DNA from: Hormoscilla sp.
GTDB lineage: Bacteria; Cyanobacteriota; Cyanobacteriia; Cyanobacteriales; Desertifilaceae
Length of the DNA stretch: 64,000 bases
Reading direction: 5' to 3'
Assembly: GCA_051439505.1 (NCBI GenBank)
Contig: JBFRWI010000151.1
Coordinates: 19,413 to 83,412 of the forward strand
Made by a program: the position numbers and the translations under genes. Below the pieces are notes generated by a model that saw nothing but the letters and a program-made list of their open reading frames with translations, was not told the DNA's origin and did no database searches. Every line of letters begins with the position of its first letter. Positions within the stretch are counted from its first letter, which is position 1. Shown piece by piece: positions 21,701 to 49,313 of the stretch.

Positions 21701-24700
21701 TTAGCCGTTTTGGACGACCGGGAAGCAGTGAAAGATACTTTGGTGGGGAGGTAGACGAACTCAGAGTTTGGAACGTCGTGCGCACGGCATCCGAAATCCA
21801 GAATAACCGCTTTCTAAGCCTCACTGGCAACGAATCTGGCTTGGTTACCTACTATACCTTTGATGAAAGCAATAATGGGACGATCGCCGATGGCAGTGGC
21901 AATGGCAACGATGGCACGCTCCAGGGAGCCCCGAGTTTCGCTCCTTCCCTTCTTCGCAACAGGGTCACCGCTGATGAAGAGACTACGAGCGGTTCATCCC
22001 TGGCAGATCCTGGAGATACTCCCTTTACCATCGGCGCATCTCTCAACAATAGCAGTTTCTTTGATGGGGCGATCGACAACCTGGCCATATGGGATCGAGC
22101 CCTCACCCAAGAGGAAGTGGAAAGCCTGACCTACCAAACCCTTACCGGTGCGGAAGATAATCTAGTCTTCTACAGCGACGGGGAGACCCTCCAAGGGGAC
22201 GCAACTCTGGTCACTTCTAGTCTGGAAGACAGTGGTTTCAGCCAGAACATTGTCGAGTTTGCCCCTGGTGAAACAACGGCGGAAGTGGGCATATTGCCAA
22301 TAAATGGAGATGACATCGACAGCAATACAAATGATGACATCACCTTAACCCTGGAAGGCAGTAATTCCGTCCTTTACGAGCTAACCACCAGCAGTGCCGA
22401 AATTCAGTTGGAAGAGGATGATGAAGTCGGGATAATCTTCGCAACCCTGACAGAACAAGGCATCCTGGACGATCGGGCGATCGCAGACCTGATAGATATC
22501 GAACTGCTGACCTTTAACTCTTCGGATGATGGGACGACGGCGACGGCGAACTTCCGAGTCCGCCTCACCGAAGATCCAACGGCAGAGGTGACAGTTACCA
22601 TAACTGATGGGAATGGCACGGACAGCACCTCATTTACCTTTGACAGCACCAACTGGGATGACTATCAACAGACGGATACGAATAGCAACCTGGATCTAAC
22701 ATTCGATTCCAGTTATCTGGTGAACGTCTCCGCCAGTAGCACCGATACATCCGATACAACCTATAACATCAATGCCATGTCCCTGCCCCTGACGGTAGCA
22801 GAGCAAGCAACGGAGATATCGGAGCTATTCACAAAGGAAGCTGATGTGACGGTAACGACGACAACAATAGATATAGAGTTTGCTGATGCAACAGATCTAA
22901 CTGTCACGGCGGACAGCCTGGACACGGTGAATCTTCAGATTAGTGCGAGCGCGTCCTTCACCAGTGCGACCCTGATAGAAGGTCAGACCCTAGAGTTTGA
23001 TGGGGGAGTGGAACTGATCGTCGAGGAAAATACAGATATTACGAACGCTCCCACTCCGGTGAATGTCTCTGTCAGCACCGGGGGGACGATCGCCACTACA
23101 GATGTGGCGGCGGAAATCCCATTAATCGCAACAATAGAGCTAGAGTTTGCTGATGCCACAGATCTAACTGTCACGGCGGGCAGCGTGGAAACGGTGAATC
23201 TTCAGATTATGGCTAATTCGTCCCTCACCAGTGCGACCCTGACACAAGGTCAGACCCTGGTGTTTGATGGGGGAGTGGAACTGATCGTCACCGAAGATAC
23301 AGATATTACGGACGCTCCCACTCCGGTGAATGTCTATGTCAGCACGTCCGGGACGATCGCCACTACAGATGCGGCCTCAATCACAACAACAGAAGAAACC
23401 ATAACCACCACGAGTACGTACAGCACCACCTTTGCAGTGGGACTTCAGAGCGAACCCACTAGCGATGTTACCTTTGACCTGGAGATTAACGATGCTGGTA
23501 CCAATGAAGGAATTTTTGACTCGGACACGACAACCAGGAGCCTGACTTTCACCCCTGATAACTGGGATAGCTATCAAGAAGTGACGCTTTATGGGGTTGA
23601 AGACCATGAGGTAGATGGAGATCAAACCTACAGCATCAGCGTTACGAATGTAAGTAATAACGATGGCCCGTATGAGAGCGAGACTGGTACCCTCTCAGTC
23701 ACCAATGAGGACATAGATGAGGCGGTGGAGGAACTGGACTCCGACGAAAGCAGTTTAATCAGTGGCGACATTGTCGCGAGCTTTACTCAGAGCAAGGTAG
23801 AAGTAAATGAAGACGGCACTGTAGACACGACTTTCACCGTCAGCCTAAGCGAAGAAGCCCCCGCAGGGGGACTAATTGTCAACTTTGAATTTGTCGAGGG
23901 TCTGGGGACAGCTACCCTGGGAGAAGATACTCAAGTACTGTTTTCCCTGGCCTCGGTAGACAATTTCCTGGGTGAGGTAGAAGTCAGTCCTGAGTTTGGT
24001 GCTCAGCCAGTATTTGTGGATATTGATGGTGATGGGGATGAAGATGCTTTCATTGGCAGCTCTAAGGATAATGGGGGGGTGACGTTTTTCCAAAATCAAG
24101 GCACCCGGGACATCCCCAGCTTTGAGGAAATCTCTAATGGTGAGGCGAACGAGATCACTGGAGATCTGATATCCTTGACGGCCAGTAGCGGAGCACTAGC
24201 GTTCGTAGATCTAGACGGCAATGGTGTCTTTGATGCCTTGACCTCGGAAGCAGATCCTGCTGATGCGATAGATGCGATAGATGCGATCGCCGAAAACCTG
24301 GGAAACTTGAGAATCCCCATGTTTGTTGATTCATCGACCTCCAACAATTCCCTGGAGAACATTATCGGGAACTCTTCGACATCCAGCGATATCCCACCAG
24401 TTCCAGCCTTTGTGGATATCGACGACGATGGGGATGAAGACCTGTTTATCACCTTAGTAGAACAAGATACCGAAAAGATCGTCTACTACATCAACGATGG
24501 CAGCACCGACGACCCCTTCGGCAGCGCTACTAGCAATGACTTTAATGATTTGTTAGCTGATGGCCAGGCAGCCATATCATCGGAGATAGAAGGCAAGTCG
24601 ATCGTCTTTGAAGACATAGATAACGACGGGGACTTCGATGCTTTCATCGGGAAGAACTCAGGGGAGATTGTCTATTACGAGAATGTTCCTGATGAGGAAG

Positions 24701-27700
24701 GGATGGCCGAATTCCAACTGAAGACAGAAGAGTCCTTTCTGCTAAGGAATGTAAATATTGGCAGTACTAGCCGACTGGCCTTTACGGACATAGATTCTGA
24801 CGGGGATGTAGATGCCTTTGTTGGCAGCGGTGAGGGCTACGTGACCTTTTACGAAGGGGGTATCGGACAAATCCTGATTCCCGAAGAGGCAACTGAGGTC
24901 ACGGTAGACCTGAACGAACTGATTATAGATGATGCGATCGCCGAAAACACCGAAACATTTGACATAGAACTCCTGGCGCACATCGGCAAAGCGACCCTAA
25001 GGGTGGTCCGCAATTATAACCCCACGGATGGTACGATCGGACTGCAACTGACGGACGAAGACAATGCATTAGCCTCTACAAGCTATACCATTCCAGCAGG
25101 ATCCCATCTGAGCTTTACCGTGGGAGGGGAGATAGTAACCATAGCGCCAGTGTCCGATGTTACCCTCACCCAAGACACCCAATTCGATATCGAAGTAACG
25201 GTGTCCGAAGGGGATGCCACGAGTCTAAGCGCGAATTCCAGTAACCCCATCACGACGGTCTTCGATGTCACGGACTACGAAGTTGACGAAACAGCCAAGA
25301 CCCTCTCGGTGACGATCCTAGACGACGACGAAGCCCTTGTTAATATCAGCGAAACGAGCTTCACCACGAGTGAAAATGGAACAACATCAAGCAGCTTTAC
25401 GGTGACTCTGGACAGCGAACCGACGGAACCAGTCACGGTTTACCTGGGCACGAACGATACCAGTGAAGGACTCTTAGCCCAAACAGTGGATTTGCAAATC
25501 ACTGAAGCCTACGACTCTAGCACCGGTGAAATCGGCTTGCGGATAGACAACTCCGGCATCTACGGCCTGGTATTTGATGCGGGTAGCACCCTAGTCTTTG
25601 GCGATGGCAGCACGGCGACAGTGAGTGAAACGACGATCGTCTACAACTCCGACGAAGGAGCAGATGTGCCGATAACAGGGGATAGCGCCGATCTGACTAA
25701 TATCGCTAGCCTGGCAGAAGAAGATGACACGGGCAGCCTTGTAGGGGAGTTGGATGTCACGGGCAGCCTTGTAGGGGAGTTGGTGGAACTCGGCTTTGAC
25801 GCCACGAACTGGGATGAGGCCCAAACAGTCACCATCATCGCTCAAGATGACGACGTGGAGGATGGCGATATCTCCTACGAGATCCGCAGTACCGTTGTCA
25901 GTGCTGACATCAAGTATCACGAAGATACGGTGCCCCTGGAAGTATTGGCCTACGATGCCAGTACGGCCACGGTAACGGTGCAGATCGATAGCCTGCGGGT
26001 GCGCGAGACTACCCTGGCAGCGGGCACCTCTTTGAAGTTCGCCAACGGCACCATCGCCACGGTCGATAGTGATAGTGCTGTAGAACTGAGCAATACAAGC
26101 TCTACTGAGGTAAGCTTGACTCTGGATACCGCAGCCTTAGGCGCAGGAGCAGTCAGTACGGGATTGGTCAGCAACGCCGACAGCGACAACGTCAGTGCTG
26201 AGGTGCGGGTCACTCAAGCCTACGATCCCAACACCGGAACCATTGGTTTGGAACTGGTAGATCCGGGGAATCTGCGCCTGGAATACGATGCGGGCACCAC
26301 GATAATCTTTGAGAATGGAGCAACCATTACCCTTGACGACGCGGTCTCCGTGCGCAGCACCAATGAAAAATTAGTCAGCGTTACCCTGAACGCATCTAAT
26401 GTCACCATTCCAGTTGGAGAAACCACGCGCTTCACCGAAAGCATCTCCTCAGACATTACGGTCACTAACAGCGATGACGATACGGCAGGGGTGACGATCG
26501 CGATTAACGGGGATGCCTTAGCTGAAGGAGTGGAGAATAATTTCTTCAGCGTGGTGCTGAACAGCGAACCTACTGGAGAGGTAAATCTGATCCTGAGTCC
26601 ATCGGACAACGAAATTCAGTTAGAAGACGAATTTGATGGAACGCGCTACACGGCAACCTTTGACGAGACCAATTGGAACATACCTCAAACCATTGAGGTA
26701 ACGGCAGTAGATGACTTTGAAATCGAATACAACCACTCCTCCACCATTACCTTTGACCTGGAAAGTGACGATGATTTCTATAACGAAGATAGCCTCGTAG
26801 CAGATAAAGAAGTCCAAATCTTCATCGAAGACAACGACTTTCCCGTTGCCAATGTAGAAGCAGTTGCAGGGGCGATCGAAGCGAACGCCCCGGGGTACTT
26901 CGCCATCACCCTTAACCAGGCGGTCTCCGATGACTTTGATAGCACGGGTATCGTCGTCAACTACCGTATTAGCGGCACGGCAGATGCCGATGGGGATGAA
27001 ACGAACGAAACCGATGACCTGCAACCGATTTCTGGGTCGGCCCGCATCGCCCCCGGTCAAAGGAGCAGCCCGTTAATTGCTTTCCCGATCGACGACTTCA
27101 AGGTAGAGGGGGTTGACCTCATTGTTAATAGCGCAGCTACGATTACTAGCGGCGGCGGTGCGATCGAGCTGGAAATAGATGTCTTTCCCTTCATGGGGAG
27201 TTACACTGCCGGGGCAGACACCATCGAGTTGCAACTAGACACCAGTTCAGATGATGAGGTGAAGACGATCCTTTCCGGTGGCACGACCTTAATCTTGCCT
27301 AATGGTGAAGTAACGGTGGCAACGACCGCGATCGTCAGTAACCAAGAGAGCACGATAGTCGAGCTGAGCGAGACTGACAGCAATAGTTTCTCGGATAGCT
27401 CAGTTTACCAGCAGATAGACCTGCCAGCGGGAACTGAATTGAAATTGGGCGATCGCACTGTCAGCGTGAGGGAGGACGCAACCGTCACTAACGAAAGCAG
27501 CACGTCAGTTACGGTTGAATTTGCCGACGATCTCACCGACGCTCTGGATGTGGCCGATGGTGACACCACTCAATTGCAGGGAGAGATCGTCACGGTCACC
27601 TTAGACAGCGGAGATAACTATGAGATCGGTGATGCTGATTCGGCCAGCATGACGATCCAAGATAATGACAAGCCTGGGGTGCGAATTGTGGAAATAGGAG

Positions 27701-30700
27701 GGGTTACCACAGTTGAAGAAGGAGCCTCATCTGGCAGCGAGTTCTTTGTTTCCCTGCTGAGTCAACCCGAAAGCGAGGTCGAACTCACCCTCAGCAACAG
27801 TACTAGCAATAGCGCCAATCTCAATGTTCTCAGCTATGACGGCTCGAATATCGCGCTACAAGTCGCAGATACAGAGGATATAAGTGCCCTCACTCTCCCC
27901 GTTGACGCCACTTTAACCTTCTTTGATAGCAGCGGTAGCGAGTTGGGCACGGGCACCATTGACAACGAGTTTTTCGTTGATGACACCGACGAAGGTACGA
28001 CAGACGAAGCGACAGAGACCTTAACCACCAGCGACGATCTCAGCACTGCCTCTACTGCCACCTACAGCTACACCGAGTTTTCATTCCCAGAGGGAAATGA
28101 CAATGATAGTGATGACATCAACGAGGAAATCACTCTCACCTTCGATTCCACGAACTGGTACGAACTCCAGTCAGTGACGGTGTTTGGAGAAGATGATAAC
28201 GTCGTGGAAACCGGAGATTTTCATACTAGCAACATCGAGTACTCTGCCACCGGAGATCCCACATACGCAAATCTCACTATTGCCGACCAAAGCATCCGGA
28301 TAATCGATCGGGTCTTGGAGAAAGAACAAACGATCGAGGCCCTAGCGGAAGGGTTCCTAGCAGTGCAAGACACCCTGGATAATCTGGAATTGCCGATCGT
28401 GGGCCAGATGGGGGTATTCGGTATCTTTGACGAATTTTTGAACGAACTGGTGGATGCCTTAGAGGCACAAGAATATATCACCGCAGATGTTCTGGCTGAA
28501 ACTATAGGGGATACGATCACCGCTCAGTTGGGGGTAGACGAACTGACAGTTGAAGTGACAGACCTTTCCGACACGAATGTCGCTTTGCTGCTCAGCTATG
28601 AGGATACTCTGGAAGAGGCGATCGCCCTAGATACGGACCTGGGCCTGCCAGCATTAGGACTGGGGATTGAAACTAGCGGGGATCTGGAACTGACCCTGGA
28701 CTACGACCTAGACCTGGCCTTTGGCATCAACAGCGACGATGGGTTCTATCTGGATATTTATAGTGAGGAAACTGACGAAGATAACGATGGCGAAACGGAC
28801 AATGTGGGGACAAGCTTGACCGCCAACGCATCCCTGGCCCTGAGTAATGAATTTACGGCCACGGGCAACATGGCATTCCTACAGGTGGATTTTGCCAACG
28901 GTCTTGACAGTGGTAACTCTACCTCAGGTACAAATATCAGTGCCGAGATCGATGCTAGCTTCCAGAATCCCAACAATGCCAACGACAAAACCCTGACCTT
29001 GAGCGAACTGACGGATTTACGCGGCACGAGCAACATTTTCGACTTCCTCCAGTATGAATTGGATGGAAGTGCCGCCATAGACTTCCTCGTGACCACCTCC
29101 GTAGAAGGGGATACCCAGTTCCCCTCTCTCAGCTTCAACTTGGAGTCAGAACTGAACCCGTTGTTCAATGCCGCTAACAACTCAGAGACCTCAACTCTCA
29201 GCGAGTTCACGATTGACTTCACTGAGATCCAAATGGACTTCGGCGAATTCATTTACAACATGGTGGGTCCGATAATTACAGATGTCAACGACTTCCTGGA
29301 TGAGTCGGGTCTGGTGGACGTGATTGAGTTCCTAACCGAGGAGATCTCCCTCATAGAAACCCTGGATCTGGTAGATGACTTCGATCGGGACGATGACGGT
29401 GGGGTGAACGTGCTGGAACTGGCCCTGACGATCGTGGAAGCAACATCGGATCTGGAGGATCCGAAATATCAGGAGTTCTTTGATGCGGTACTGCTGATCG
29501 CAGACACGGCGGACCTGATCGTAGATACCCTGGAAAATTTTGAGAACGAGGGAGCTATTTTACTGAACTTCGGCGAGTATTCTTTTGACTTCAATGCAGC
29601 AGACTCTAATAACGACACCAGCAGCCTAGATCCAGAAGAGGAACAGAAAGAAGAGGATACTTTAAACGACACTGCCCTGTCAACAGCGGAAGACGACCTC
29701 GAAAACTCAACCGAGAACGACTCTCTGTTCGAGGTGTTCGACAAGATGGATGAACTGGGAATCAGCTTCCCTCTATTGGAAGACCCCTTCACCATCATCA
29801 ATCTCTTCTTCGGCCAAGATGTAGACCTGGTGACCTACGACGTGCCCGAACTCGACCTAGAGTTTCCCTTGTCAGCAGAATTTCCGATTTTCACGGGCAT
29901 CAATGGTGTTTTGGAAGGAAGTCTGGCAGTGTCCTCAGATCTGGAAGTTGGGTTTGATACCTTTGGCTTTAGTCAATGGGAAGAGACCGGGTTTGACATC
30001 GAAGATTCCTACCTGATACTGGACGGGATCTACCTGAACGATCTCGACGACGAGGGCGAAGACGTGCCGGAGTTGGAATTGAATGCGACGATCGCAGCGG
30101 GGGTAGAGGTAAATGCAGTGGTGGCGAGCGTTAAAGCTACTGGCGGACTGGAAGGGTCAGCGGAATTAGATGTAGTTGATGAAGGGCAATATACCGGCCA
30201 AAGCGATGGGAAATTCCGCATCTCAGAGCTGGTGAACGGTTTGAGTAACCCCCTATCCTTGTTGGAACTTTCCGGGGAACTGGCAGCCTTCCTGCGGTTG
30301 GTGGTGAAAGTAGGGATTGATGTGGGTTTATTCGAGGTCACGAAAAAAGTTTTGGATGAAGAACTGGCGCGGGTAACTCTGTTTGAATTCACCCTGGGTG
30401 GAGATACGACGAGTGGAGATTCATCGGGCAGTTACATTGCCGATGGGACAGTATTTTTTGATGGCAACTTCAACCAGAAATTGGACCCCACCGAACCCTT
30501 TACCACCACGGATGCCTACGGTCACTACGTCTTGGAAATTCCCCCATCCTTCGATCTCAACTCCGATGGCGTTATAGACGAGATCGACGGTCAACTGGTA
30601 TCGAGGGGCGGGGTGGATAGTTCTAGCGGGGTATCGGCAGGCACCTTAATAGCCCTGCCGGGTTCGACAATTATTTCTCCCCTCACGAGTCTGAAGGCAG

Positions 30701-33700
30701 AACTATATCAACTGGATCTGGATCCCGATGCAGCAGAAACCCTGGTCTTAAATCAACTGGGACTAGAAGGCATCATCGATCTAGATAGTTTCGACGCCCT
30801 GGAAGCGGTCGGATCTAACGAAGAACTGGGTCTGGATACCTATCTAAATCACGTCAAAATCCAAGCCCTATTTAACAATGCCCGTGGTTTTTTGCACGGC
30901 CTGCAACAAGCTGACCCCACCCTGGCAGTAGATGGCAACAACCTGCAAAATGTTCTCGAAGCAGTTGCTCAGTTCTTTATCGATCGCCCGGCCACGGAAC
31001 CATGGGATCTCAATGATATGGCAGAGGTGCGGCCTTTCTTCCAGTTCCTGGTCGATCGCAATGAGGTTTCAGCAACAGCAGCACAGATTGATGCTATAAC
31101 TCAAATCGTCACTGACAGCAACAGTTTCCTAGATGAAGCTACCGCCGTCGCCCAACCCTTGGGTTTAACCAGTACCATCCCGGTTATAGCTTCGGTCAAG
31201 CGGGTCATGCAAGGAGATTTACCCGCGATCGCGCGACAATTGGGCAACGGCAACTTTACCCCCCCAGATGCCCTGGCAGAATTCGACAGCACGATAAATC
31301 AAAACTACGTGCTGGTGGATGCAGACATCAACGCCTTTGGCAACCGCAGCGTGGATATTACGGTGGATGCAGACAGCGTCAACGAAAATGAAGGGGCGAT
31401 CGCTCAATTTAGCATCAACCTGAGCGATCCGGCTCCCAATCAGGGATTGAACCTATTCTATGCCATCGACGGCACGGCATCTGAGGGCCAAGACTATGAC
31501 TTGCCAGGCACTGGGACGGGTCAACTGTTCGTGGCCCCTGACGAAACCCAGGTCACCATTGACGTGACCATCTTAGATGACAATGCCTCGAAAGGATTGG
31601 AAGCTTTAACCTTAACTCTGGTGACCGTGGGAGAAGGTTACCTGATCGATCCCTTGGGAAGCAGCGCCACTCTGCGCATCATCGATGACGAACCACCGCT
31701 AGAAGAATCCCTGCTGGATCTGAGCGATGTGATAGAAGGGACGATCGGCAATGATAACTTAACAGGAACAGAAGATTCAGATTGGCTTGACGGCAAAGAG
31801 GGCAATGATGAGATCGCGGGGGAAGGCAGCAGCGATTTGATCTTCGGCGGCTATGGTTTGGATATATTGAGCGGTGGTGACGGCAATGACGTAATTCTGG
31901 GCCACTATGGGGACGATAGCCTGTTCGGAGAAGCAGGGGACGACGAACTGCGAGGTGGTTCGGGGGGAGATTTCCTAGATGGAGGGCCCGATAATGACAT
32001 TATCAATGGCTTAGAAGGACCCGATCGGCTGTTTGGGCGTTCCGGCGCCGATCGGCTGATTGGGGGTCAAGCGATCGATCTGTTAGACGGCGGTTTCGAC
32101 AACGATATACTCGAAGGGGGTTCCGGTGCCGATCTGATAATTGGCGGTCCGGGAGACGATCTGTTCATTGGCGGGGACGACAACGATTTGTTCGTGCTCA
32201 ACTTACCCAACCAAGGGTTCGATCGCATATTCGACTTTGACCCTGATGAAGGGGATGTGATTTATATAGTCGATTCCAGTTCCACCGTGACCCTCGACCA
32301 GTTGCGCTTCGTGAATGGAATCTTGGATCTAAACGGAGAGAATCTGGCGTTGATCCAAAATGAAGACCAAACCTATGCCTTCTTCCCGAATTTAGAGGGG
32401 ATAATTCAGATTGTATCTGAGTTGCCACCTGTACCGACCAATCCAGGTGGACCGGGTGGTCCCGGACAAGGTGGTCCCGGACAAGGTGGTCCCGGACTTC
32501 AACCCCAGGTTGCCGATAAAGTTGTCACCGAAGGGCTAGCAGATGACCCGGCGGACCTCAGTCAAGACCTGTTGACCCAAATATTAGATCGGGGCTGGGT
32601 GCGAGTGGCCATTACCGAATTCACCAATGGCTACAACCGGGAATTAGCATCAGGATTAGCAGCAGCTTTATTTGGCGACCCAACTGCTATAGAATTCGCG
32701 ATCCTCCCGGAAACAGAAATCTTGGCAGCGGTAGCGTCGGGCCACGTAGATATCTCCTACGAACTCTTCACTCCTACTCTGGAAAGTGATGCCGCTGAGG
32801 GCATAGATTTTGGCCCCAACGTCTTCTACAACAGCCAGGTAATTCTCTTTAAGCCCGATGCTGGCATTACCGATGCTTTTGACTTAGAGGGCAAAAATAT
32901 GGGCATAGTGCGAGACTCAGCAGGTTTAAGGGAACTGAATCAACTGTTGAGTGACAATTCTATTAATGCCAATCCGATCTTCTTTGACTCCCTCGACGAT
33001 TTGGTGAGGGCTTATGATGATGGAGAGGTAGACGCGATCGTCCAAGACTATGAGAGCCTGCGACGCTTTAATACCTTCAGCAATGCAAATTCTTTCAACT
33101 TCCTGGATTTAGATCTAGCGGTGGAGCCCAAGGCCCCAGTCATAGCCGAAAATCAATCGCCATGGGCGGACGTGGTGCGATGGGTTTCTCAAGTGCCAAG
33201 TCAGGCAGAAGAACTAGATATCTTCTCGCGCAACCTGGAACGCTTTGTCTCTAACAGTACCGACGATCGCATTCGTCGTTTCCTCGGTAACAGCGGTAAC
33301 TTGGGAGAACAGTTGGGCGTCCGCTCCGACTTTGCCTTCCAGGTACTAGATGCTGTAGGGAATGCCGAAGACTTGTTTATCGATCGCTTTGACATCCGCC
33401 ACCGCAACCGCAATCATCTATGGATTAACGATGGTTTGGTGTATGGGGCTCCCTTCTCGGACACCGACCAGACAGGAGAGTTGTTAGACAATGACTCGCG
33501 CGATGTCCTGGCAGAAGTGCGGGCCCGAGGAAGGGTCAACTTTGGGATAGTGGGCGATCGCGTGGGCTTCTCTGCCGAGGCCAACGGCGAACTGACGGGA
33601 TTTGATGTTGACTTGGGCAAAGCACTGGCCGCCGCCGTATTTGGCGATGCTACCGCTGTCGAATTTATCGAGCAGGGTGTTAATTCGGGCGATCGCCTGC

Positions 33701-34833
33701 TTTCTGTAGCCAATGGCGCGGTAGATGTAGCCACGGCCAGTCACACCTTGGGGCGGGATGCATCATTAGGAGTGGACTTTAGCCCGGCCTATCTGTACAC
33801 GGAACTTGGGGTACTGGTGCGCACCGAGTTGGCAATTAGTTCCACCGCAGGACTGAATGGTTTGACGATCGGCTTCGTAGAAACCGATGACGTGACGACA
33901 TTAAGGGAGAGTTTGGAGCAGCTCAATGTTAGCTTTGCAGAGCGGATGTTTGAGAGTGACGATGCCCTATTTGCCGCCTATGACAATAGCGAGATCGATG
34001 CCGTTGCTCAAGATGCAACTGCTCTAGCAGCTCGCATACCCACTCTGAGCGAGCCCGACGCGCACCAACTGTTCGATGATGAATTTATTGCCAAAATGCC
34101 CTTGGCACTGGCAACGGATGAAAATCAATCGGCATGGGCTGACGTGGTGCGTTGGGTGGTCTATACTCTGGTGAAAGCCGAAGAGTTGGGCATTACTGCA
34201 GACAATGTTGACCAATTGCTTACCTCCGACAATGTTTCCGACGAAGTGAGCTCCTTCTTGGGTATTACGGGAGATGCGGGAGCAGCACTGGGTTTGAGCA
34301 ACGACTTTGCCGCCAACATTATCCGCACGGTGGGCAATTATGCCGAGATTTACAACCGCCACTTTGACTCCTCCATCCTGCGGCGCGATCGCAATGAGTC
34401 CTTCGAGGAGTTCGGGGTGCAAATTGCTCCTGCAACTAGCGATGCATCTTCGTCAGCTCCAGGAGATATTATCCTAGACATTGACGGCAATGGGGTTGTA
34501 GGTGCCTTCAGCGACGGTGTTTTAGCTTTGCGTTATCTGGACGGGGAAACTGGTGACGCTCTCATTGATGGGGCGATCGCGCCTGATGCTGCTCGCAATG
34601 CTGACGAGATTATCGACTACCTAAACTCGATACGGGATACGGTACTAGATGTGGACGGTAACGGTATGGCAGAGGGCCCGACAGATGGCATTCTGTTCTT
34701 CCGCTATCTGACAGGTCTCACAGGTGATGCTCTGATTGATGGGGCGATCGGTCTTGGTGCCACCCGCACCGCTGCGGATGATATTATCGCCCACTTGGAA
34801 TCCTTCATTATGCCCACTCTGAACGACATCTGA
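15733..34833 (+). CDS. Giant (6366 aa) Ca-binding surface/adhesin-like protein: EEIGH N-domain, CSLREA/beta-helix/choice-of-anchor-Q, LamG x6, Calx-beta, FG-GAP, RTX, two amino-acid SBP domains, dockerin-like tail
   Basis: Uninterrupted ORF; DGVTSLREAL, LQDNGGSTETIAL..DSPAID, FDG.IDE.RIW, DIDGDGD.D, GG.G.D nonapeptides, WADVVRWV...AEELGI twice, DIDGNG..G..DG.L..RYL twice. Confidence 0.92.
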   Translation: MSMNANISLETSAANLNRAISETQALLKAFVRDDRFRVEDLTNAFHAGVHEEEFSQLLGQFELGDFSGLPNIEMRSRSDTGGALGVYVADTDMIYLAEDFLENSTISQIVEVLLEEIGHAIDARINATDSAGDEGAIFSALVRGVDLSEAQLEALHRENDRIQLVIDGQTVMAEAATIMVDTLNDTEDSGDGVTSLREALASATSGDTITFDSGGTITLGGSQLEITKDVTIDGDIDNEGTPDITIDADGQSRVFNIDDGSTTQIAVSLEGLTITGGSISGNDDGGGIYNSESLSITNSTISNNSTGTGNNPRGGGINNNSGIVVITNSTISGNSAGADGGGIENFLGTMTIANSTISNNSAAGYDGGGIDNIVGTMTIANSTISGNSAGDDGGGVKNSGMITITNSTISGNSAGDDGGGVNVSSSGLSGFIPYAYLASTIVADNTAGISDNDLFVDASGTISARNSLIERDSDQINGTNTDNITGVDPLLDPNGLQDNGGSTETIALQSDSPAIDTGSNPNGLTSDQRGDNLREFGAGVDIGAFEYQLQIASISDYTATIYETSADFGKALALDGDEDYVALPELGFSGGNTSVSVSAWFKVNESAGERNNIFGFGQDGSTRETFSIRTRGDGGFRFYFWGDDLDVDVDPYYGEWTHVAATYDDTSEMQSVYVNGSLAGERQVSSTPNFANKSYRIGGFNDEYFDGSIDEVRIWEAALTAEEIQDNLYSPLTGTEKDLVAYYSFEDDATTIADQSGNENNGTLQGGAFDESLSFIGYVDLELSSEVFSEPGIIVNYTIESDTASEGDDFYQSQLDISTTDGVDPTNSIFIPQGEDTGRIYLTALPDAIAEDDEELTLRLVSDFDDALSLDGDGDYVDVPDGTWFNGDLTIEAWVYVRNYNNWSRLLDFGNGRADDNVLVALSNGTSGQPRFGVHLGDDPSNLESPVQLPLDSWSHIAVTLSNTTGIMYINGEQVAINEAMNIPAGETRTQNYLGRSNWSSDADADALFDDVRIWDVARTEEEIKANRYNTLVGDEDNLVAYYRFDDGYVSIATTEDATVEDVTGNGNDGKFRGDATITADNSDRNNVLTLDGDGDYIELPNLELSGDTSVSVSAWINVNAGAEDRNNIFGFGNAGENGEVFSIRTRGDGSFRFYFWADDLDVNVNDYYGTWTHVAATYDATSGMQSVYVNGSLVGEPRVATPDFANDNYRIGGFNDEYFDGSLDDVGIWNKALNSEEIDDIINNNITEDGLLAYYDFDKYRVQDATGNGNDGIFYGGVTEESVYNDPFSIDGEGPTYEVDSAQSATITIADSNAYTPGVIVADLFNDEISSDQTENLINIIDDSWEFQVKLASEPTEDVTIDLSTTLGNLDTNSLTFTSDDWTRYQTVTVTNFSSEAAFDLSVTATSNDANYSSAETIAITPTDEVLKLAVTEGGTTQEAPIIPVGVDGTSNAIEDSDEPGIFTITLGDEAPEEGLRIPFSVTSDTDTDFEVVGDEFSLNEAFTFDGVDDYIEFSDSSVGGAFDGGSSAFSITGWINPDALGSTVLANASSSAAGNIELGIDASGNLNLTLDTDADTDTTLNLGNGAIAAGDWQFFGLTLDDSNNGLELDGIDDYVELNPIPATIAAGEALTIEHWIKPDATDAQILFYTGDNTDENGFNGNGSHLHTGINSGGSFTFVYDDDDNDLILIADTSLNAGQWYHLAVSFELGSSDADGELKMYIDGEQVTFEGGQSSLAINSLATTNLDFSRFGRPGSSERYFDGEVDELRVWNVVRTASEIENNRFVSLTGNEPGLVTYYTFDERDDGTIADGSGNGNDGTIEGSPSFAPSLGTVTAYINQPDESNNALELDGIDDYVELNPIPATIAAGEALTIEHWVKPDATDAQILFYTGDDTDENGFNGPGSHLHTGINNGGSFTFVYDDDDNDHILIADTSLNAGQWYHLAASFELGSDDEDGELKMYIDGEQVTFNGGQSSLAIDSSATTALNFSRFGRPGSSERYFGGEVDELRVWNVVRTASEIQNNRFLSLTGNESGLVTYYTFDESNNGTIADGSGNGNDGTLQGAPSFAPSLLRNRVTADEETTSGSSLADPGDTPFTIGASLNNSSFFDGAIDNLAIWDRALTQEEVESLTYQTLTGAEDNLVFYSDGETLQGDATLVTSSLEDSGFSQNIVEFAPGETTAEVGILPINGDDIDSNTNDDITLTLEGSNSVLYELTTSSAEIQLEEDDEVGIIFATLTEQGILDDRAIADLIDIELLTFNSSDDGTTATANFRVRLTEDPTAEVTVTITDGNGTDSTSFTFDSTNWDDYQQTDTNSNLDLTFDSSYLVNVSASSTDTSDTTYNINAMSLPLTVAEQATEISELFTKEADVTVTTTTIDIEFADATDLTVTADSLDTVNLQISASASFTSATLIEGQTLEFDGGVELIVEENTDITNAPTPVNVSVSTGGTIATTDVAAEIPLIATIELEFADATDLTVTAGSVETVNLQIMANSSLTSATLTQGQTLVFDGGVELIVTEDTDITDAPTPVNVYVSTSGTIATTDAASITTTEETITTTSTYSTTFAVGLQSEPTSDVTFDLEINDAGTNEGIFDSDTTTRSLTFTPDNWDSYQEVTLYGVEDHEVDGDQTYSISVTNVSNNDGPYESETGTLSVTNEDIDEAVEELDSDESSLISGDIVASFTQSKVEVNEDGTVDTTFTVSLSEEAPAGGLIVNFEFVEGLGTATLGEDTQVLFSLASVDNFLGEVEVSPEFGAQPVFVDIDGDGDEDAFIGSSKDNGGVTFFQNQGTRDIPSFEEISNGEANEITGDLISLTASSGALAFVDLDGNGVFDALTSEADPADAIDAIDAIAENLGNLRIPMFVDSSTSNNSLENIIGNSSTSSDIPPVPAFVDIDDDGDEDLFITLVEQDTEKIVYYINDGSTDDPFGSATSNDFNDLLADGQAAISSEIEGKSIVFEDIDNDGDFDAFIGKNSGEIVYYENVPDEEGMAEFQLKTEESFLLRNVNIGSTSRLAFTDIDSDGDVDAFVGSGEGYVTFYEGGIGQILIPEEATEVTVDLNELIIDDAIAENTETFDIELLAHIGKATLRVVRNYNPTDGTIGLQLTDEDNALASTSYTIPAGSHLSFTVGGEIVTIAPVSDVTLTQDTQFDIEVTVSEGDATSLSANSSNPITTVFDVTDYEVDETAKTLSVTILDDDEALVNISETSFTTSENGTTSSSFTVTLDSEPTEPVTVYLGTNDTSEGLLAQTVDLQITEAYDSSTGEIGLRIDNSGIYGLVFDAGSTLVFGDGSTATVSETTIVYNSDEGADVPITGDSADLTNIASLAEEDDTGSLVGELDVTGSLVGELVELGFDATNWDEAQTVTIIAQDDDVEDGDISYEIRSTVVSADIKYHEDTVPLEVLAYDASTATVTVQIDSLRVRETTLAAGTSLKFANGTIATVDSDSAVELSNTSSTEVSLTLDTAALGAGAVSTGLVSNADSDNVSAEVRVTQAYDPNTGTIGLELVDPGNLRLEYDAGTTIIFENGATITLDDAVSVRSTNEKLVSVTLNASNVTIPVGETTRFTESISSDITVTNSDDDTAGVTIAINGDALAEGVENNFFSVVLNSEPTGEVNLILSPSDNEIQLEDEFDGTRYTATFDETNWNIPQTIEVTAVDDFEIEYNHSSTITFDLESDDDFYNEDSLVADKEVQIFIEDNDFPVANVEAVAGAIEANAPGYFAITLNQAVSDDFDSTGIVVNYRISGTADADGDETNETDDLQPISGSARIAPGQRSSPLIAFPIDDFKVEGVDLIVNSAATITSGGGAIELEIDVFPFMGSYTAGADTIELQLDTSSDDEVKTILSGGTTLILPNGEVTVATTAIVSNQESTIVELSETDSNSFSDSSVYQQIDLPAGTELKLGDRTVSVREDATVTNESSTSVTVEFADDLTDALDVADGDTTQLQGEIVTVTLDSGDNYEIGDADSASMTIQDNDKPGVRIVEIGGVTTVEEGASSGSEFFVSLLSQPESEVELTLSNSTSNSANLNVLSYDGSNIALQVADTEDISALTLPVDATLTFFDSSGSELGTGTIDNEFFVDDTDEGTTDEATETLTTSDDLSTASTATYSYTEFSFPEGNDNDSDDINEEITLTFDSTNWYELQSVTVFGEDDNVVETGDFHTSNIEYSATGDPTYANLTIADQSIRIIDRVLEKEQTIEALAEGFLAVQDTLDNLELPIVGQMGVFGIFDEFLNELVDALEAQEYITADVLAETIGDTITAQLGVDELTVEVTDLSDTNVALLLSYEDTLEEAIALDTDLGLPALGLGIETSGDLELTLDYDLDLAFGINSDDGFYLDIYSEETDEDNDGETDNVGTSLTANASLALSNEFTATGNMAFLQVDFANGLDSGNSTSGTNISAEIDASFQNPNNANDKTLTLSELTDLRGTSNIFDFLQYELDGSAAIDFLVTTSVEGDTQFPSLSFNLESELNPLFNAANNSETSTLSEFTIDFTEIQMDFGEFIYNMVGPIITDVNDFLDESGLVDVIEFLTEEISLIETLDLVDDFDRDDDGGVNVLELALTIVEATSDLEDPKYQEFFDAVLLIADTADLIVDTLENFENEGAILLNFGEYSFDFNAADSNNDTSSLDPEEEQKEEDTLNDTALSTAEDDLENSTENDSLFEVFDKMDELGISFPLLEDPFTIINLFFGQDVDLVTYDVPELDLEFPLSAEFPIFTGINGVLEGSLAVSSDLEVGFDTFGFSQWEETGFDIEDSYLILDGIYLNDLDDEGEDVPELELNATIAAGVEVNAVVASVKATGGLEGSAELDVVDEGQYTGQSDGKFRISELVNGLSNPLSLLELSGELAAFLRLVVKVGIDVGLFEVTKKVLDEELARVTLFEFTLGGDTTSGDSSGSYIADGTVFFDGNFNQKLDPTEPFTTTDAYGHYVLEIPPSFDLNSDGVIDEIDGQLVSRGGVDSSSGVSAGTLIALPGSTIISPLTSLKAELYQLDLDPDAAETLVLNQLGLEGIIDLDSFDALEAVGSNEELGLDTYLNHVKIQALFNNARGFLHGLQQADPTLAVDGNNLQNVLEAVAQFFIDRPATEPWDLNDMAEVRPFFQFLVDRNEVSATAAQIDAITQIVTDSNSFLDEATAVAQPLGLTSTIPVIASVKRVMQGDLPAIARQLGNGNFTPPDALAEFDSTINQNYVLVDADINAFGNRSVDITVDADSVNENEGAIAQFSINLSDPAPNQGLNLFYAIDGTASEGQDYDLPGTGTGQLFVAPDETQVTIDVTILDDNASKGLEALTLTLVTVGEGYLIDPLGSSATLRIIDDEPPLEESLLDLSDVIEGTIGNDNLTGTEDSDWLDGKEGNDEIAGEGSSDLIFGGYGLDILSGGDGNDVILGHYGDDSLFGEAGDDELRGGSGGDFLDGGPDNDIINGLEGPDRLFGRSGADRLIGGQAIDLLDGGFDNDILEGGSGADLIIGGPGDDLFIGGDDNDLFVLNLPNQGFDRIFDFDPDEGDVIYIVDSSSTVTLDQLRFVNGILDLNGENLALIQNEDQTYAFFPNLEGIIQIVSELPPVPTNPGGPGGPGQGGPGQGGPGLQPQVADKVVTEGLADDPADLSQDLLTQILDRGWVRVAITEFTNGYNRELASGLAAALFGDPTAIEFAILPETEILAAVASGHVDISYELFTPTLESDAAEGIDFGPNVFYNSQVILFKPDAGITDAFDLEGKNMGIVRDSAGLRELNQLLSDNSINANPIFFDSLDDLVRAYDDGEVDAIVQDYESLRRFNTFSNANSFNFLDLDLAVEPKAPVIAENQSPWADVVRWVSQVPSQAEELDIFSRNLERFVSNSTDDRIRRFLGNSGNLGEQLGVRSDFAFQVLDAVGNAEDLFIDRFDIRHRNRNHLWINDGLVYGAPFSDTDQTGELLDNDSRDVLAEVRARGRVNFGIVGDRVGFSAEANGELTGFDVDLGKALAAAVFGDATAVEFIEQGVNSGDRLLSVANGAVDVATASHTLGRDASLGVDFSPAYLYTELGVLVRTELAISSTAGLNGLTIGFVETDDVTTLRESLEQLNVSFAERMFESDDALFAAYDNSEIDAVAQDATALAARIPTLSEPDAHQLFDDEFIAKMPLALATDENQSAWADVVRWVVYTLVKAEELGITADNVDQLLTSDNVSDEVSSFLGITGDAGAALGLSNDFAANIIRTVGNYAEIYNRHFDSSILRRDRNESFEEFGVQIAPATSDASSSAPGDIILDIDGNGVVGAFSDGVLALRYLDGETGDALIDGAIAPDAARNADEIIDYLNSIRDTVLDVDGNGMAEGPTDGILFFRYLTGLTGDALIDGAIGLGATRTAADDIIAHLESFIMPTLNDI
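20542..21950 (+). repeat. Near-identical intragenic duplication of a LamG module (723-bp period)
   Basis: 20542-21227 vs 21265-21950 match over most positions at DNA level. Confidence 0.9.
22864..23371 (+). repeat. Intragenic 267-bp tandem duplication
   Basis: ACAATAGA..TAGAGTTTGCTGATGC...GACGATCGCCACTACAGATG at 22864 and 23131. Confidence 0.85.
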
Positions 34834-34957
34834 TTGAGAAAAAGGCGTTGGGCGATCGCGCAAGACGATGCCTATCGTGGCAGCAAGCGATCGCCCCCCG
34901 ATACTTCGTAGGTTTTGCAAGAGGCAGGGGGCAGGAGATTGCTTCGGGGGGGGGTCT

Positions 34958-35179
34958 GGTCTCCAACAAGGTCTCCAGCAAGGTCTCCAGCAAGGTCTCA
35001 TGAGGGAACGCCAGTACATGATCGAAAGTATCCTGCCCATGGGCTTTGGCGCGATCGATCGGCAACTGGAAGCAATTATCCCGCCATTATTAGCATTATC
35101 GGCAGCATAATTTCTCCCAATACTGCTGGAATTATCTCGTGAAGAATTGTTGGCGAGGTTTGGAGAATTAAACGGTTAG
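34958..35179 (+). pseudogene. C-terminal remnant of an Rpn/PD-(D/E)XK-type gene
   Basis: GLQQGLQQGLQQG..ERQ.MIE..L..GFG.ID.QLE.IIP.LL.L, in-frame TAA at 35108, continues FLPILLELSREELLARF; 5' part replaced by a palindromic element half. Confidence 0.7.
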
Positions 35180-35237: not shown

Positions 35238-37919
35238 TTATTTGGTTTTCATCGTGTGGACGCCATCCCAGTAGGGTGGCGGTGGGTCGTTCAGGTAAGC
35301 ATGCGATCGCTCGATATGCACGTCTATAGCTCGATCCTTTGGTTGCAGGTTCTTCGCTTGCTGGAAGTAGTGAATTGCCTGTTGGAAATTCCTGGAAATG
35401 TAGGCGGCACGCCCCAATTTATACAGTTCTAAATATGACTGGGTCACATCATCTAATGCTTCTTGTTTGTAGCCAATTACTTCGTAGATATTGACCGCTT
35501 CGTTTTTGCCCTTGACCCGAATTTTGTCTAGTTCCCGCACCCAGATGCGATCGCGGCAGTAATTGTAAGTAAATTCGCTGATAATCAGGTCGCAACCATA
35601 TTCCTTAGTAACCCCTTCCAGACGGGAACTGAGGTTAACACCATCTCCAATCACGGTATAATCCATCCGTTTTTGGGAGCCAATATTTCCCGATACCACT
35701 TCCCCAGAACTGATGCCCATCCCAATGCGAATTTGGGGCTGGTTTTCCATAAATCTGCGCGCGTTAAATGCTTTCAGACGCTGGCGCATATCCAGGGCCG
35801 ATTGCACTGCCATCCAGGCATGATTCTCTACTGGCAGGGGAGCCCCAAATACGGCCATCAAGGCGTCGCCAATAAATTTATCTAGGGTGCCTTTGTAATT
35901 AAACACCGCCTCCACCATTGTCTCGAAATATTGATTCAGCAGCATTACCACTTCTTGGGCTTCCATATTCTCTGTTAAAGTGGTGTAGCCGCGAATATCA
36001 GAAAATAAAATCGTCACGTCTTTGCGTTCCCCCACCATTAATGAGTCTTCACCCAGGGCCATCACTTGCTCCACTACCCCCGGGTTCATGTAGCGATACA
36101 TGGTGGTTTTCATCCGTTTTTCCTGGCTGATATCTTCCAGCACTATTAAACCACCTCGCACCGCCCCGTCGGGATTTGTCAAAGGGTTGACCGTCAGATT
36201 GATGCTGCGATCGATCTTTTCTACTTCTGAAGCTGGCAATGTCTCCACAATGGGGGAAAGGTCTGGGATATAATTTTCAGAATCACTTATATTCGACAAG
36301 GAAATGCTATTATTTTTCTCAGCCGTCTGGTGAGATTTTTTCCCATTGCTATCAACTCGCTCGTTCCAGGGAATGTATACATCTGTTAAGGTGCGATCGG
36401 GAATTACCAGGATATAGATGCCGCGATCGTCATCAGGTTCCATCTGAGGCTGTGATAAATTATTTTCGCTGACTCCCTTGAGCTGATAGATACCAACTGT
36501 CAAGCTTTGCTCGGGAACATATTGTTTCGTGCCGTGTTTGAGACTATCTTCCAATCGCATTTGCAGATTTTCCACTGGCACCACTTCCCAGACCTGGCGA
36601 CCCAACAGCTTCTGTTCCCACAACCCGATATTTATTTTGCCCGCTGCTTTCTTCACCGGGCAACCCAGTAACTCCAACGCTGCTTCATTCAGGGTAACAA
36701 TTCGACCTTCCATATCCGTGGATATTACCGCATCTGATAAACTTTCCAGAATGTCTTTCTGATATTGTTTCTCTAACAGGACACTTTCAAACAGCTTGGC
36801 ATTTTCCAGGGCCATTCCTGCCTGGATGTTAAATGCCTGCATGAATTCTTCATCCGAACTGGTAAAGCTGCCCTGTTTCTTATTGATCAGTTGGGTTACC
36901 CCGATCAATTCCCCCGCTGAATTAAACACGGGCATGCAGAGGATATTGCGGGTATTGTAGCCACTTTTTTTGTCCGTACTGGGGTCAAACCGGGGGTCTT
37001 CATAGGCGTTGGGAATGTTCAGGGGTTCACCTGTGGAGGCCACATAGCCAGCAATGCCTTTATTGGCGGGAATGCGAATTTCTAGGAGTTTTCGACCGTC
37101 CGCTGTGGCTATTTTGGTCCACAGTTCCCCCGCGTCTTTGCGCAGCATAAATAGGGTACTACGATCGGCCTGCATCAGATCTCTTGCTTGGGCCATTACA
37201 GACTGGAGTGTCGCTTGCACGTCCAGACTCTGACCCAGGGTTTTCGTCGCCTGCAACAGTGCTGCTGCTCCCCGCTGATTCCGCGCCGCCATGTAGAATG
37301 ATTGACAGGTTTCCAGGATGATGCCGATCGAGGAGGCAAACTCCCGGAAGCTTTGTTCGTCGGCGCTGCTAAATCCTGCACCCCCGGCCTTATTCGACAA
37401 CTGCACTACTGCCACTACCTGATTTTTGCTACTCGTTATCGGCATGCACAGCAGGTTCCGGGTATGGTAGCCTGTTTGCTTGTCCAGTTCTTTGTTGAAT
37501 AGGGGATGTCCGCTAGCGTTACTGATGTTAAGATATTTGCCTGTAGTTGCGACTTGACCCGCAATCCCAACGTTCAGAGGAATCCTGATTTCTAATGGCT
37601 TTTGAGAGTCTGTTTGGCTGATTTTCGACCAGAGTTGGCCTTTTTCGGCATCAACCAGAAAGATCGTGGTGCGGTCTGCTTCCAGTATTTGACCTATCTT
37701 TAAGGTCAGTGCATCCATTATTTGCTCTAGCATACTTTCTAGAGCTTCGTTATTGATCAGGTCGATCGCCCGCAGGAATTGCTGGAATTCTGCGGTGATG
37801 AAGTCCAGCAAGCAGACAAATTCTGGCACTGGCAGGTCTTTGACGCGCTGCGTCAATGCTCCCATCATATTGACTTGAGCTAATGAAGCTAGTACGCTGC
37901 CAGTGTTCGGTAGTGCCAT
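35238..37919 (-). CDS. cyaB1: Class III adenylate cyclase, GAF-GAF-PAS-cyclase
   Basis: MALPNTGSVLASL start, two GAF domains with NK..G.F...D motifs, PAS, ILFSDIRGYT, DKFIGDA, GDGVNLSSRLE; ORF track extends to 37988. Confidence 0.92.
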   Translation of the reverse strand: MALPNTGSVLASLAQVNMMGALTQRVKDLPVPEFVCLLDFITAEFQQFLRAIDLINNEALESMLEQIMDALTLKIGQILEADRTTIFLVDAEKGQLWSKISQTDSQKPLEIRIPLNVGIAGQVATTGKYLNISNASGHPLFNKELDKQTGYHTRNLLCMPITSSKNQVVAVVQLSNKAGGAGFSSADEQSFREFASSIGIILETCQSFYMAARNQRGAAALLQATKTLGQSLDVQATLQSVMAQARDLMQADRSTLFMLRKDAGELWTKIATADGRKLLEIRIPANKGIAGYVASTGEPLNIPNAYEDPRFDPSTDKKSGYNTRNILCMPVFNSAGELIGVTQLINKKQGSFTSSDEEFMQAFNIQAGMALENAKLFESVLLEKQYQKDILESLSDAVISTDMEGRIVTLNEAALELLGCPVKKAAGKINIGLWEQKLLGRQVWEVVPVENLQMRLEDSLKHGTKQYVPEQSLTVGIYQLKGVSENNLSQPQMEPDDDRGIYILVIPDRTLTDVYIPWNERVDSNGKKSHQTAEKNNSISLSNISDSENYIPDLSPIVETLPASEVEKIDRSINLTVNPLTNPDGAVRGGLIVLEDISQEKRMKTTMYRYMNPGVVEQVMALGEDSLMVGERKDVTILFSDIRGYTTLTENMEAQEVVMLLNQYFETMVEAVFNYKGTLDKFIGDALMAVFGAPLPVENHAWMAVQSALDMRQRLKAFNARRFMENQPQIRIGMGISSGEVVSGNIGSQKRMDYTVIGDGVNLSSRLEGVTKEYGCDLIISEFTYNYCRDRIWVRELDKIRVKGKNEAVNIYEVIGYKQEALDDVTQSYLELYKLGRAAYISRNFQQAIHYFQQAKNLQPKDRAIDVHIERSHAYLNDPPPPYWDGVHTMKTK

Positions 37920-38168
37920 GAGGATGCGGGAGAGGGTTTTATGCTTGCGCTCCTGGTGGGTATACCTGACTATCTCGTTAACGCGCATGCATGTTAACTG
38001 GCGATGCTAGTAATAAGAGGAAACCTACTACTGCTGATGCTCTGATTTTAAGGTTCACTCCATAGTCGATCCACCAGTGAGAACCTGGAAGGCGCCATCA
38101 ATTTCACCAATGTATCCCACCATTACCTTACCTGCAAGTAATCTGAGACACAAATAGCTGCAAATATT

Positions 38169-48642: not shown

Positions 48643-49233
48643 TTAAACTATTACCTCGTCAGCAAAATTTGCCCAGCGCACAAACTCAAATGGTCCCGCG
48701 ATCGAACCCCACAGTCGTTCGTCTGTTTCCGGGTCGCGCCCCCGGTCCAGACTGATCAGTTTCTGTTCGTAAACTTCAAATTCACTGTCGAGATAGCTAG
48801 TTTTACCTTGGCGAACCACGATGCAAGCTTTTCCCGGTTCTACCCGGGCTTTGAAGCTGTGACCCGTCCATTCTACTAAGAAGTTACAGCCCGGGAGTTT
48901 CTCTAGTCGATCGGGGGTGAGTGCTGACAGGCGATCGCGATCGCGGGAAGCTCCGTAAAACTTTTCTTCCTCTTTAATTTTATAGTTTTCCAGTTCAATG
49001 CTTTCTCCCGTATTGACTAATTTCAACACTCGGGTCCGATAGGGTTGGTTGAGCATGATATCATAGGCTTGTTCTAGATACAAACTTACCCCATCTAACA
49101 AGTCCGGGGGCAAGGGACGCATGCAAACGCGAATGTGAGCAAAAAATGGGGGATTTTCAAAGGCTTGCTCTTGGTTGCTGAAGTCGGCTGCCATCCAGCG
49201 TGCTAGGGTGGTAATATCGGTAGAATAAGTCAT
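48643..49233 (-). CDS. cpcT: Chromophore lyase, CpcT/CpeT family
   Basis: MTYSTDITTLARWMAADFSNQEQAFENPPFFAHI, LDRGRDPET...WGS..GPF; longer ORF start lies in a REP. Confidence 0.92.
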   Translation of the reverse strand: MTYSTDITTLARWMAADFSNQEQAFENPPFFAHIRVCMRPLPPDLLDGVSLYLEQAYDIMLNQPYRTRVLKLVNTGESIELENYKIKEEEKFYGASRDRDRLSALTPDRLEKLPGCNFLVEWTGHSFKARVEPGKACIVVRQGKTSYLDSEFEVYEQKLISLDRGRDPETDERLWGSIAGPFEFVRWANFADEVIV

Positions 49234-49313
49234 GTCAGTTCGTAGGGTGGGCAATGCCCACCATGTTAGTTGGGTTCGGTGGGCAATGCCCACCATGTCA
49301 GGTTGGGAATATT

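Follow-up and report, generated by a model that had tools for sequence, protein, structure and literature searches.

The window analysed here, a 64,000-nucleotide stretch of contig JBFRWI010000151.1 from the cyanobacterium Hormoscilla sp., contains a single stop-free open reading frame (ORF; positions 15733-34833, plus strand) encoding an RTX protein of 6,366 amino acids (aa), which carries towards its C-terminus two tandem substrate-binding protein (SBP) domains with the fold of AapJ, BztA and NatF, the binding proteins of amino-acid ABC transporters. The giant is acidic (Asp plus Glu 18.9%, Lys plus Arg 3.3%), contains 0 Cys and has no hydrophobic N-terminus. A first-pass annotation of the sequence had placed two such domains behind a GGPGQ linker, and they were confirmed there at 32566-33459 and 33502-34434. 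The features of the protein are as follows.

15733-34833, plus strand: the whole giant, an acidic, cysteine-free RTX protein of 6,366 aa
15733-16260, plus strand: N-terminal unnamed cyanobacterial domain with a zincin-like EEIGH motif, the first His absent
17194-17376, plus strand: choice-of-anchor Q domain (NF041518, E 7e-19)
17692-22134, plus strand: about 7 LamG/concanavalin-like domains, bounds approximate (PF13385, E 2e-147, 7 stretches)
24019-24240, plus strand: FG-GAP repeats, the best of 3 stretches (PF13517)
29038-34455, plus strand: C-terminal cassette of an unnamed region, Calx-beta, RTX, SBP domain 1 and SBP domain 2 (BLAST against giant cyanobacterial relatives)
31369-31689, plus strand: Calx-beta domain (PF03160, E 9e-9)
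31732-32193, plus strand: RTX Ca2+-binding nonapeptide repeats (PF00353, E 2e-25, 5 stretches)
32446-32496, plus strand: Gly/Pro/Gln linker PGGPGGPGQGGPGQGGPG, with 2 full GGPGQ units and partial ones
32566-33459, plus strand: SBP domain 1, AapJ/BztA-like fold, with Ser for the carboxylate-binding Arg and the GTT motif replaced
32785-32787, plus strand: codon for Ser in place of the conserved Arg of domain 1
33502-34434, plus strand: SBP domain 2, AapJ/BztA-like fold, with the Ser-Arg-Asp clamp kept, a 2-residue deletion before the clamp, and ETDD for GTTT
33754-33756, plus strand: conserved clamp Arg of domain 2 (by column mapping)
34456-34830, plus strand: C-terminal duplicated dockerin-like tag, common to 26 ORFs of the genome

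Both domains find their best match in 4Z9N (domain 1, E 3.2e-31; domain 2, E 6.3e-44), whose PDB title records bound glutathione and which the accessible text of 10.64898/2026.05.04.722672 describes as a Brucella BztA-like protein homologous to AapJ and to the asparagine-binding YhdW. Domain 2 exceeds the Pfam SBP_bac_3 cut-off of 26.4 bits (45.6 bits), whereas domain 1 falls below it (21.6 bits), and the two are 35% identical to each other. A 635-aa model of the pair, built from 76 sequences, reached a predicted local distance difference test score (pLDDT) of 91.5 and a predicted template modelling score (pTM) of 0.92, and its best PDB match was again 4Z9N (TM 0.90 by target). Domain 2 superposes on that structure with a Z of 34.7 and a root-mean-square deviation (rmsd) of 1.9 Å over 310 residues, the long C-terminal extension included, these comparison rows being mainly those of domain 2. 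The high pTM suggests that the two modelled domains stand in a fixed mutual arrangement, and the conserved motifs ENxSxW and NDxRNxL may contribute to their interface; single-sequence folding (pLDDT 33.6) was not used. The AapJ/BztA-type fold and family origin proposed at first pass are thus borne out, and the possibility that the domains do not have the PBP2 fold is contradicted by the 4Z9N matches and the confident model. The motifs quoted in that annotation are exact in domain 2 (GFDVDLGKALAAAVFGD, LAEVRARG, AEELGI and VGNYAEIYNR), but domain 1 has only degenerate versions (GYNRELASGLAAALFGD, AEELDI and VGNAEDLF). The replacement of the SRNTTWT segment of natF was read correctly, YELFTPT and ATASHT occupying its position.

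A sequencing error as the source of the fusion is largely refuted. Contigs of DNA run X1, possibly the source of the assembly, extend without a joint across 30500-35100, every one of its 30 bins being covered. In a related strain from another study (X5) separate contigs extend over 32098-32460 (from behind the RTX block into the linker) and over the junction of domains 1 and 2, the whole stretch from behind the RTX block to domain 2 being spanned by no single listed piece; the linker of this strain is 24 bp longer, in frame (one contig, depth 3.2). Finally, the fusion recurs in dozens of genomes. RNA run X13 gave contigs mostly 90-95% alike over both domains, which we do not count as expression evidence because DNA carry-over is possible and a silent control is lacking.

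The fusion is not a one-off: this genome has four such proteins and the family 58 cyanobacterial loci. The three additional RTX-plus-pair proteins measure 807, 822 and 1,060 aa (contigs C27, C21 and C169), and a separate normal operon on contig C102 consists of 2 lipoprotein natF genes followed by 2 permease genes. In the shorter paralogues (L001:7638-10061, L002:7539-10721 and L003:6864-9332) the RTX block is N-terminal and the second binding domain forms the end; their N-terminal RTX module is elsewhere fused to a nucleoside hydrolase domain and occurs in FG-GAP/cadherin proteins, and the first of these genes is followed by an HlyD-like/FtsX/ABC trio. The natF pair at L004:5041-7154 is tandem and 76% identical.

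Among the best 150 matches to the last 795 aa of the giant, 13 further proteins (1,733-6,571 aa) have RTX repeats directly before the pair (Pfam confirmed 11; the other 2 were too long to scan). Scanning of genomes yielded 59 loci, 58 of them cyanobacterial by title, in carriers that include Trichodesmium, Crocosphaera, Okeania, Dapis, Microcoleus, Laspinema, Lyngbya, Planktothrix, Nostoc, Calothrix and Dolichospermum. In 19 of 23 large relatives a single BLAST segment of 36-43% identity spans the cassette, starting at aa ~4430 or ~4900 and running to ~6240, with the segments of the remaining 4 starting later; outside the cassette the stalks and tails of the giants differ. The domains belong to an old cyanobacteria-wide subfamily travelling in a conserved C-terminal cassette of about 1,350-1,800 aa. 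Behind the pair, 21 RTX-type loci show an RTX tail (10), a DUF4114-like end (8) or another arrangement (3). A full-length homologue search at 3,501-11,141 aa returned only the protein itself, though such relatives exist, which marks a limit of its sensitivity. The Trichodesmium member is Tery_4754, which carries database annotations for RTX, Calx-beta and solute-binding family 3 and is transcribed (171-330 counts per million) with no iron response; Trichodesmium also has aapJ/bztA (PMC12090762, supplementary table).

The module is unevenly distributed among 30 relatives of the present genome, and 2 genomes of its genus have broken copies. Broken or split tandem modules, attributable to decay or assembly error, were seen at G002:C1:5764609-5766472 and G004:C23:98198-101292 and at loci L027, L041, L054, L059 and L070. 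A short form of about 740-830 aa, with its own N-terminal repeat and no RTX, occurs in Microcoleus, Laspinema, Lyngbya and Phormidium, where it heads gene clusters at 21 loci within L030-L065 (e.g. L033:10088-20790, L047:9707-15629 and L064:9674-17055). These clusters contain an ECF-like sigma factor (13/21), an ABC exporter (11/21) and non-ribosomal peptide synthetase (NRPS) genes (6/21), and one locus additionally has FeeM, ATP-grasp and haem-oxygenase-like genes; the short form may bind an amino-acid-derived metabolite. Canonical Cys-containing AapJ-type domains were also found fused behind N-terminal regions of 270-420 aa (P0175, P0205, P0209, P0176, P0150 and P0144), some of which look kinase-like or caspase-like by eye, and these lie outside the pair clade where placed.

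The phylogeny against the NatF of the genome, proposed at first pass as a check, decided against a local origin. Descent of the window domains from the genome's own natF genes, to which they are 33-39% identical, was rejected by the approximately unbiased (AU) test (p 2.6e-5). In a quick tree of 101 of the 171 non-redundant domains (all 56 family rows plus 45 others, 22 of these random), unrooted and computed without a mixture model, 61 fused domains form one group apart from natF with 100 support in the Shimodaira-Hasegawa-like approximate likelihood ratio test (SH-aLRT), a result that is not fully independent because the family label derives from search rank. A recent internal duplication, with domains 1 and 2 as sisters, was not rejected (AU p 0.28), and the free tree groups domain 1 with other first domains (support 99); both window domains sit on long branches (0.74 and 0.62). 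In relatives the fused domains are under purifying selection: the median pairwise dN/dS (ratio of nonsynonymous to synonymous substitution rates) over 11 RTX-type pairs is 0.15 for domain 1 and 0.10 for domain 2, with domain 1 higher in 9 of the 11, and over 205 non-RTX pairs it is 0.12 and 0.14, respectively. These pairs were drawn from 903 by identity and dS filters, are not independent of one another and do not include the window gene.

The two domains of the giant are not equivalent, domain 1 being without the carboxylate-binding Arg and domain 2 retaining its clamp, which corrects the first-pass treatment of both as like SBPs. We located the clamp columns through AncQR and take the Thr, Arg and Asp residues to play the roles they have in GlnBP and LAO. 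Of the second domains, 97 of 98 retain the clamp Arg, against 77 of 94 first domains and 7 of the 13 first domains that belong to proteins longer than 1,700 aa. When the RTX-type loci and the window are taken together, the triad is intact in 22/22 second domains and 13/22 first domains. None of the 22 non-RTX loci has an intact first-domain triad, Asn standing for Asp in 21, and the combined Asp-to-Asn and Thr-to-Arg pocket change that marks the first domain of the short form is fixed in 21/22. In RTX-type second domains the Arg-Asn of RNTTWT has given way to small residues (MG, AG or SS) or to a deletion. Domain 1 of the giant has Ser at the Arg site and its GTT is replaced; related strains likewise have Ser there, drawn from the other codon box in 3 runs of one study, and their domain 1 pocket loop bears clustered substitutions and short deletions (low-depth contigs). 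The remodelled pocket proposed at first pass is supported.

Detachment from ABC transport, a further element of that annotation, is upheld by the absence of a signal, of a neighbouring permease and of the four canonical Cys. BLAST with the genome's own permeases found a Nat-type permease at 0 of the 58 cyanobacterial loci, whose flanks are partial (at least 3 kb downstream in 53, upstream in 30 and on both sides in 29), and found both NatG-like and NatH-like genes in the non-cyanobacterial control L074; no BPD_transp_1 domain occurs among the 27 window ORFs scanned. By a hydropathy heuristic a hydrophobic N-terminus is present in 0/106 family proteins versus 58/63 canonical ones, two locus ORFs having scored 2.1 at a first Met that is possibly not the true start. 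Cys is found at the four canonical positions in 0/215 family domains versus 60-62/67 canonical domains, and the net charge per 100 aa is -8.5 versus -2.6. The accessible text of PMC3034196 describes RTX proteins as typically acidic and notes a lack of Cys in RTX S-layer proteins and lipases, which the acidity and Cys absence of the family fit. We dropped Cys loss as a proof of adaptation to type I export because the nearest signal-bearing relatives are also without the four Cys. Elsewhere in the genome, an HlyD above its family cut-off (TIGR01843) lies on contig C53 beside a 1,042-codon ABC-exporter ORF.

The ends of the giant are less easily assigned. The N-terminal domain (15733-16260) has 0 Pfam/NCBIfam matches and contains no known retention module that we could detect; its Atlas matches are to unnamed cyanobacterial clusters (0.96-0.97) and a Peptidase_M48 cluster (0.92). 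It shows EExxH where zincins have HExxH, and 2 further copies occur in the genome. The terminal tag (34456-34830) matches dockerin-like Atlas clusters at 0.95-0.97, and relatives match Dockerin_1; the tag is a candidate surface or sheath anchor, and no cohesin partner was found in the genome, which is 93% complete. This duplicated tag of about 120 aa is N- or C-terminal in the 26 ORFs, many of which have FG-GAP, propeller, subtilase-like or Calx-type regions as judged by eye, and it is expanded in same-genus genomes too. The convergent neighbour of the giant (35238-37988) encodes a GAF-GAF-PAS adenylate/guanylate cyclase with no link to the pair family in other loci, and a phycobilisome linker, 2 ferredoxin-dependent bilin reductases and CpeT (42-2488 and 48643-49296) indicate a cyanobacterial host that likely contains phycoerythrin.

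We tentatively favour, at something close to an even chance, the reading that the pair binds ligands at the tip of an adhesin-like surface protein secreted by the type I route, with a role in attachment rather than import. It is supported by the recurring architecture, by the missing Nat-type permeases, signal peptides and Cys, by the acidity of the family and the HlyD of the genome, by the RTX or DUF4114-like ends of 18 of 21 RTX-type relatives, and by the intact domain 2 clamp, the low dN/dS and the confident model of the pair. The unfolded chain would be exported in one step and fold in external Ca2+, the LamG/FG-GAP/Calx stalk would project the tip, and the two clamps would be packed rigidly against each other. 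Domain 2 would hold its ligand by a free end bearing the alpha-amino and alpha-carboxyl groups, with a side-chain pocket reshaped for something other or larger than a simple amino acid, for instance a gamma-glutamyl peptide, or a different amino-acid-ended one, displayed by cells or matrix. Domain 1 would be a fast-changing accessory site that in this copy no longer holds a carboxylate. Attachment to such molecules, and not their import, would be the outcome. RTX adhesins carry ligand-binding domains near their C-terminal RTX/type I secretion system (T1SS) end, according to the available part of PMC5550230, and this placement together with the glutathione in 4Z9N makes a peptide-like ligand plausible. 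It is also possible, if doubtful, that cyanobacteria have made an ABC-transporter binding protein into a new class of ligand-binding tip for such secreted giants, a rigid module of two clamps in which clamp 2 reads a conserved amino-acid-ended ligand and clamp 1 diversifies between strains.

Several observations count against an attachment role. A closed Venus-flytrap normally buries its ligand and suits soluble ligands better than surfaces. Domain 2 of the giant keeps Ser-Arg-Asp but has lost 2 aa and GTT and differs at three further positions where 77-92% of the family has Q, D or E, which makes this copy more degraded than most. On the side of export, there is no T1SS gene beside the giant among the 27 window ORFs scanned, a Pfam/NCBIfam scan of the giant found no retention module of known type, some 880 aa separate the RTX block from the C-terminus, and the three shorter paralogues have that block at the N-terminus. 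The terminal tag stands at N- as well as C-termini elsewhere and so is not a plain C-terminal export signal. In addition, 5 single-domain proteins with signal-like N-termini, including 2 nearest the clade, are also without the four Cys, so that Cys loss may predate the fusion.

Of the alternatives, a sponge for amino acids or peptides outside the cell, taking up free or leaked amino acids within the sheath or colony and releasing them to the normal Nat transporter, is rather unlikely. The kept clamp of domain 2 would suit it, as would the complete natF-natF-permease operon in this genome and the aapJ/bztA of Trichodesmium, the many carriers that form mats, biofilms or colonies (by titles), and the short 800-aa versions that do without a long stalk. 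Against this, RTX-type second domains have lost NatF's Arg-Asn side-chain motif, two sites per 6,366-aa chain would be a costly form of solute storage, and there is no route passing the ligand across the outer membrane.

Alternatively, the pair could be a ligand-free structural element of a secreted giant (a spacer, folding nucleus or protein-protein contact) whose pockets are both decaying in this copy, which we consider unlikely. The domain 1 clamp is broken in 9/22 RTX-type loci, including among close Microcoleus relatives, domain 1 dN/dS reaches 0.63, and the long branches of this copy's domains and the broken copies in 2 same-genus genomes and several loci point the same way. Against this, the domain 2 Arg is kept in 97/98 of the family, in all 22 RTX-type loci and here, and its retention while neighbouring pocket residues change points to selection on the binding site.

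It is improbable that one of the domains is an enzyme acting on an amino-acid-like extracellular substrate, in the manner of cyclohexadienyl dehydratase (CDT). The same fold offers a precedent in which the amino-acid motif was retained, as the available part of 10.1101/157495 reports, and the family has a specific His-Asn in its pocket loop (T-H-N-L-x-R-D), while some short members lie beside NRPS and ABC-exporter genes and one locus has FeeM and ATP-grasp. That His is variable, however (Q, E and N occur), no family-wide new pocket residue of catalytic type stood out, and CDT structures match with a Z of only about 19 versus 34.7 for 4Z9N. A continuing role in periplasmic ABC import or sensing, for which the tandem domains that supply a permease or kinase in GlnPQ, BvgS and EvgS would be a model with the same fold, is scarcely credible, as is an assembly artefact: the giant has no signal peptide, permease or kinase domain, the available flanks of the loci show a Nat-type permease in 0/58, and dozens of genomes share a fusion whose contig cover here is even and free of joints.

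Comparison with known systems helps to place the pair. With AapJ, BztA, NatF and YhdW (4Z9N, from Brucella ovis) it shares the fold, the long C-terminal extension and, in domain 2, the Thr/Ser-Arg-Asp clamp; it differs from the AapJ/BztA/NatF proteins in lying tandem inside an RTX protein, without a signal peptide or lipobox, permease genes or the four Cys, with RNTTWT replaced and in a clade of its own. Two type-II binding domains per chain are also found in GlnPQ (SBD1-SBD2), BvgS and EvgS (Foldseek E 1e-16 to 4e-19), but those domains feed a membrane permease or kinase, and the whole giant has no fused permease or histidine kinase among its Pfam/NCBIfam domains; the whole pair overlays poorly on these proteins (rmsd 15-20 Å, 12-14% identity), and its domains are accordingly arranged differently. 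Campylobacter PEB1a (2V25; PRK11917) has the same fold and, per its family name, a reported adhesin role, but it is a stand-alone transporter component and the PRK11917 match is far under the cut-off (48 versus 373 bits).

Closer in overall design are RTX adhesins of the MpIBP and LapA type, with which the giant shares its very large size, its acidity and a multidomain build with a stalk, together with RTX repeats, end modules that can be swapped and putative ligand domains close to the C-terminus; unlike in those proteins, the putative ligand domains here follow the RTX block, and a retention module was not detected. By analogy, the pair may work like the ligand region of an RTX adhesin, with the retention module and terminal export signal lacking a clear match. 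The ligand domains named for RTX adhesins in the accessible sources are CBM/PA14, vWFA, peptide-binding and ice-binding. The available text of a 2026 survey (10.1101/2025.09.30.679566) names CBM, vWFA and peptide-binding domains and has 0 mentions of 'solute-binding', 'substrate-binding' or 'cyanobacteri', and that of an RTX review has no solute-binding-type term either. Cyanobacterial RTX surface proteins (SwmA, oscillin, Sll1951 and the Trichodesmium HTCaB) are similar as a broad class, linked to surface layers, motility and proposed particle attachment in the portions available of PMC3034196 and PMC5776111, none of them being described there with binding-protein domains. Tery_4754 is not among the Fe-regulated HTCaB genes named in the accessible part of PMC5776111, and the term 'Tery_4754' had 0 matches in open main texts and none in one supplement of that paper. 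Our search of the open literature, with subscription papers, bioRxiv and proteomics supplements outside its scope, found no description of the fusion. The pair is thus real, widespread and undescribed in the searchable literature, although its domains are already listed in databases.

Most cyanobacterial RTX proteins are without an assigned function, as far as the available text of PMC3034196 goes, and the attachment of Trichodesmium colonies, benthic mats and bloom-formers to one another, to partners and to particles is still poorly explained. The fused domains clearly illustrate how part of a transporter can be put to another use, which is now masked by the label 'transporter substrate-binding domain-containing protein'. 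The 635-aa module is compact and easily expressed, with a predictable pocket and a built-in contrast between a conserved domain 2 and a variable domain 1, and a member of the family occurs, and is transcribed, in a model diazotroph (Tery_4754). If the pair is indeed a new class of ligand-binding tip, it would give Trichodesmium and the mat- and bloom-forming cyanobacteria a chemical means of recognising partners, matrix or particles.

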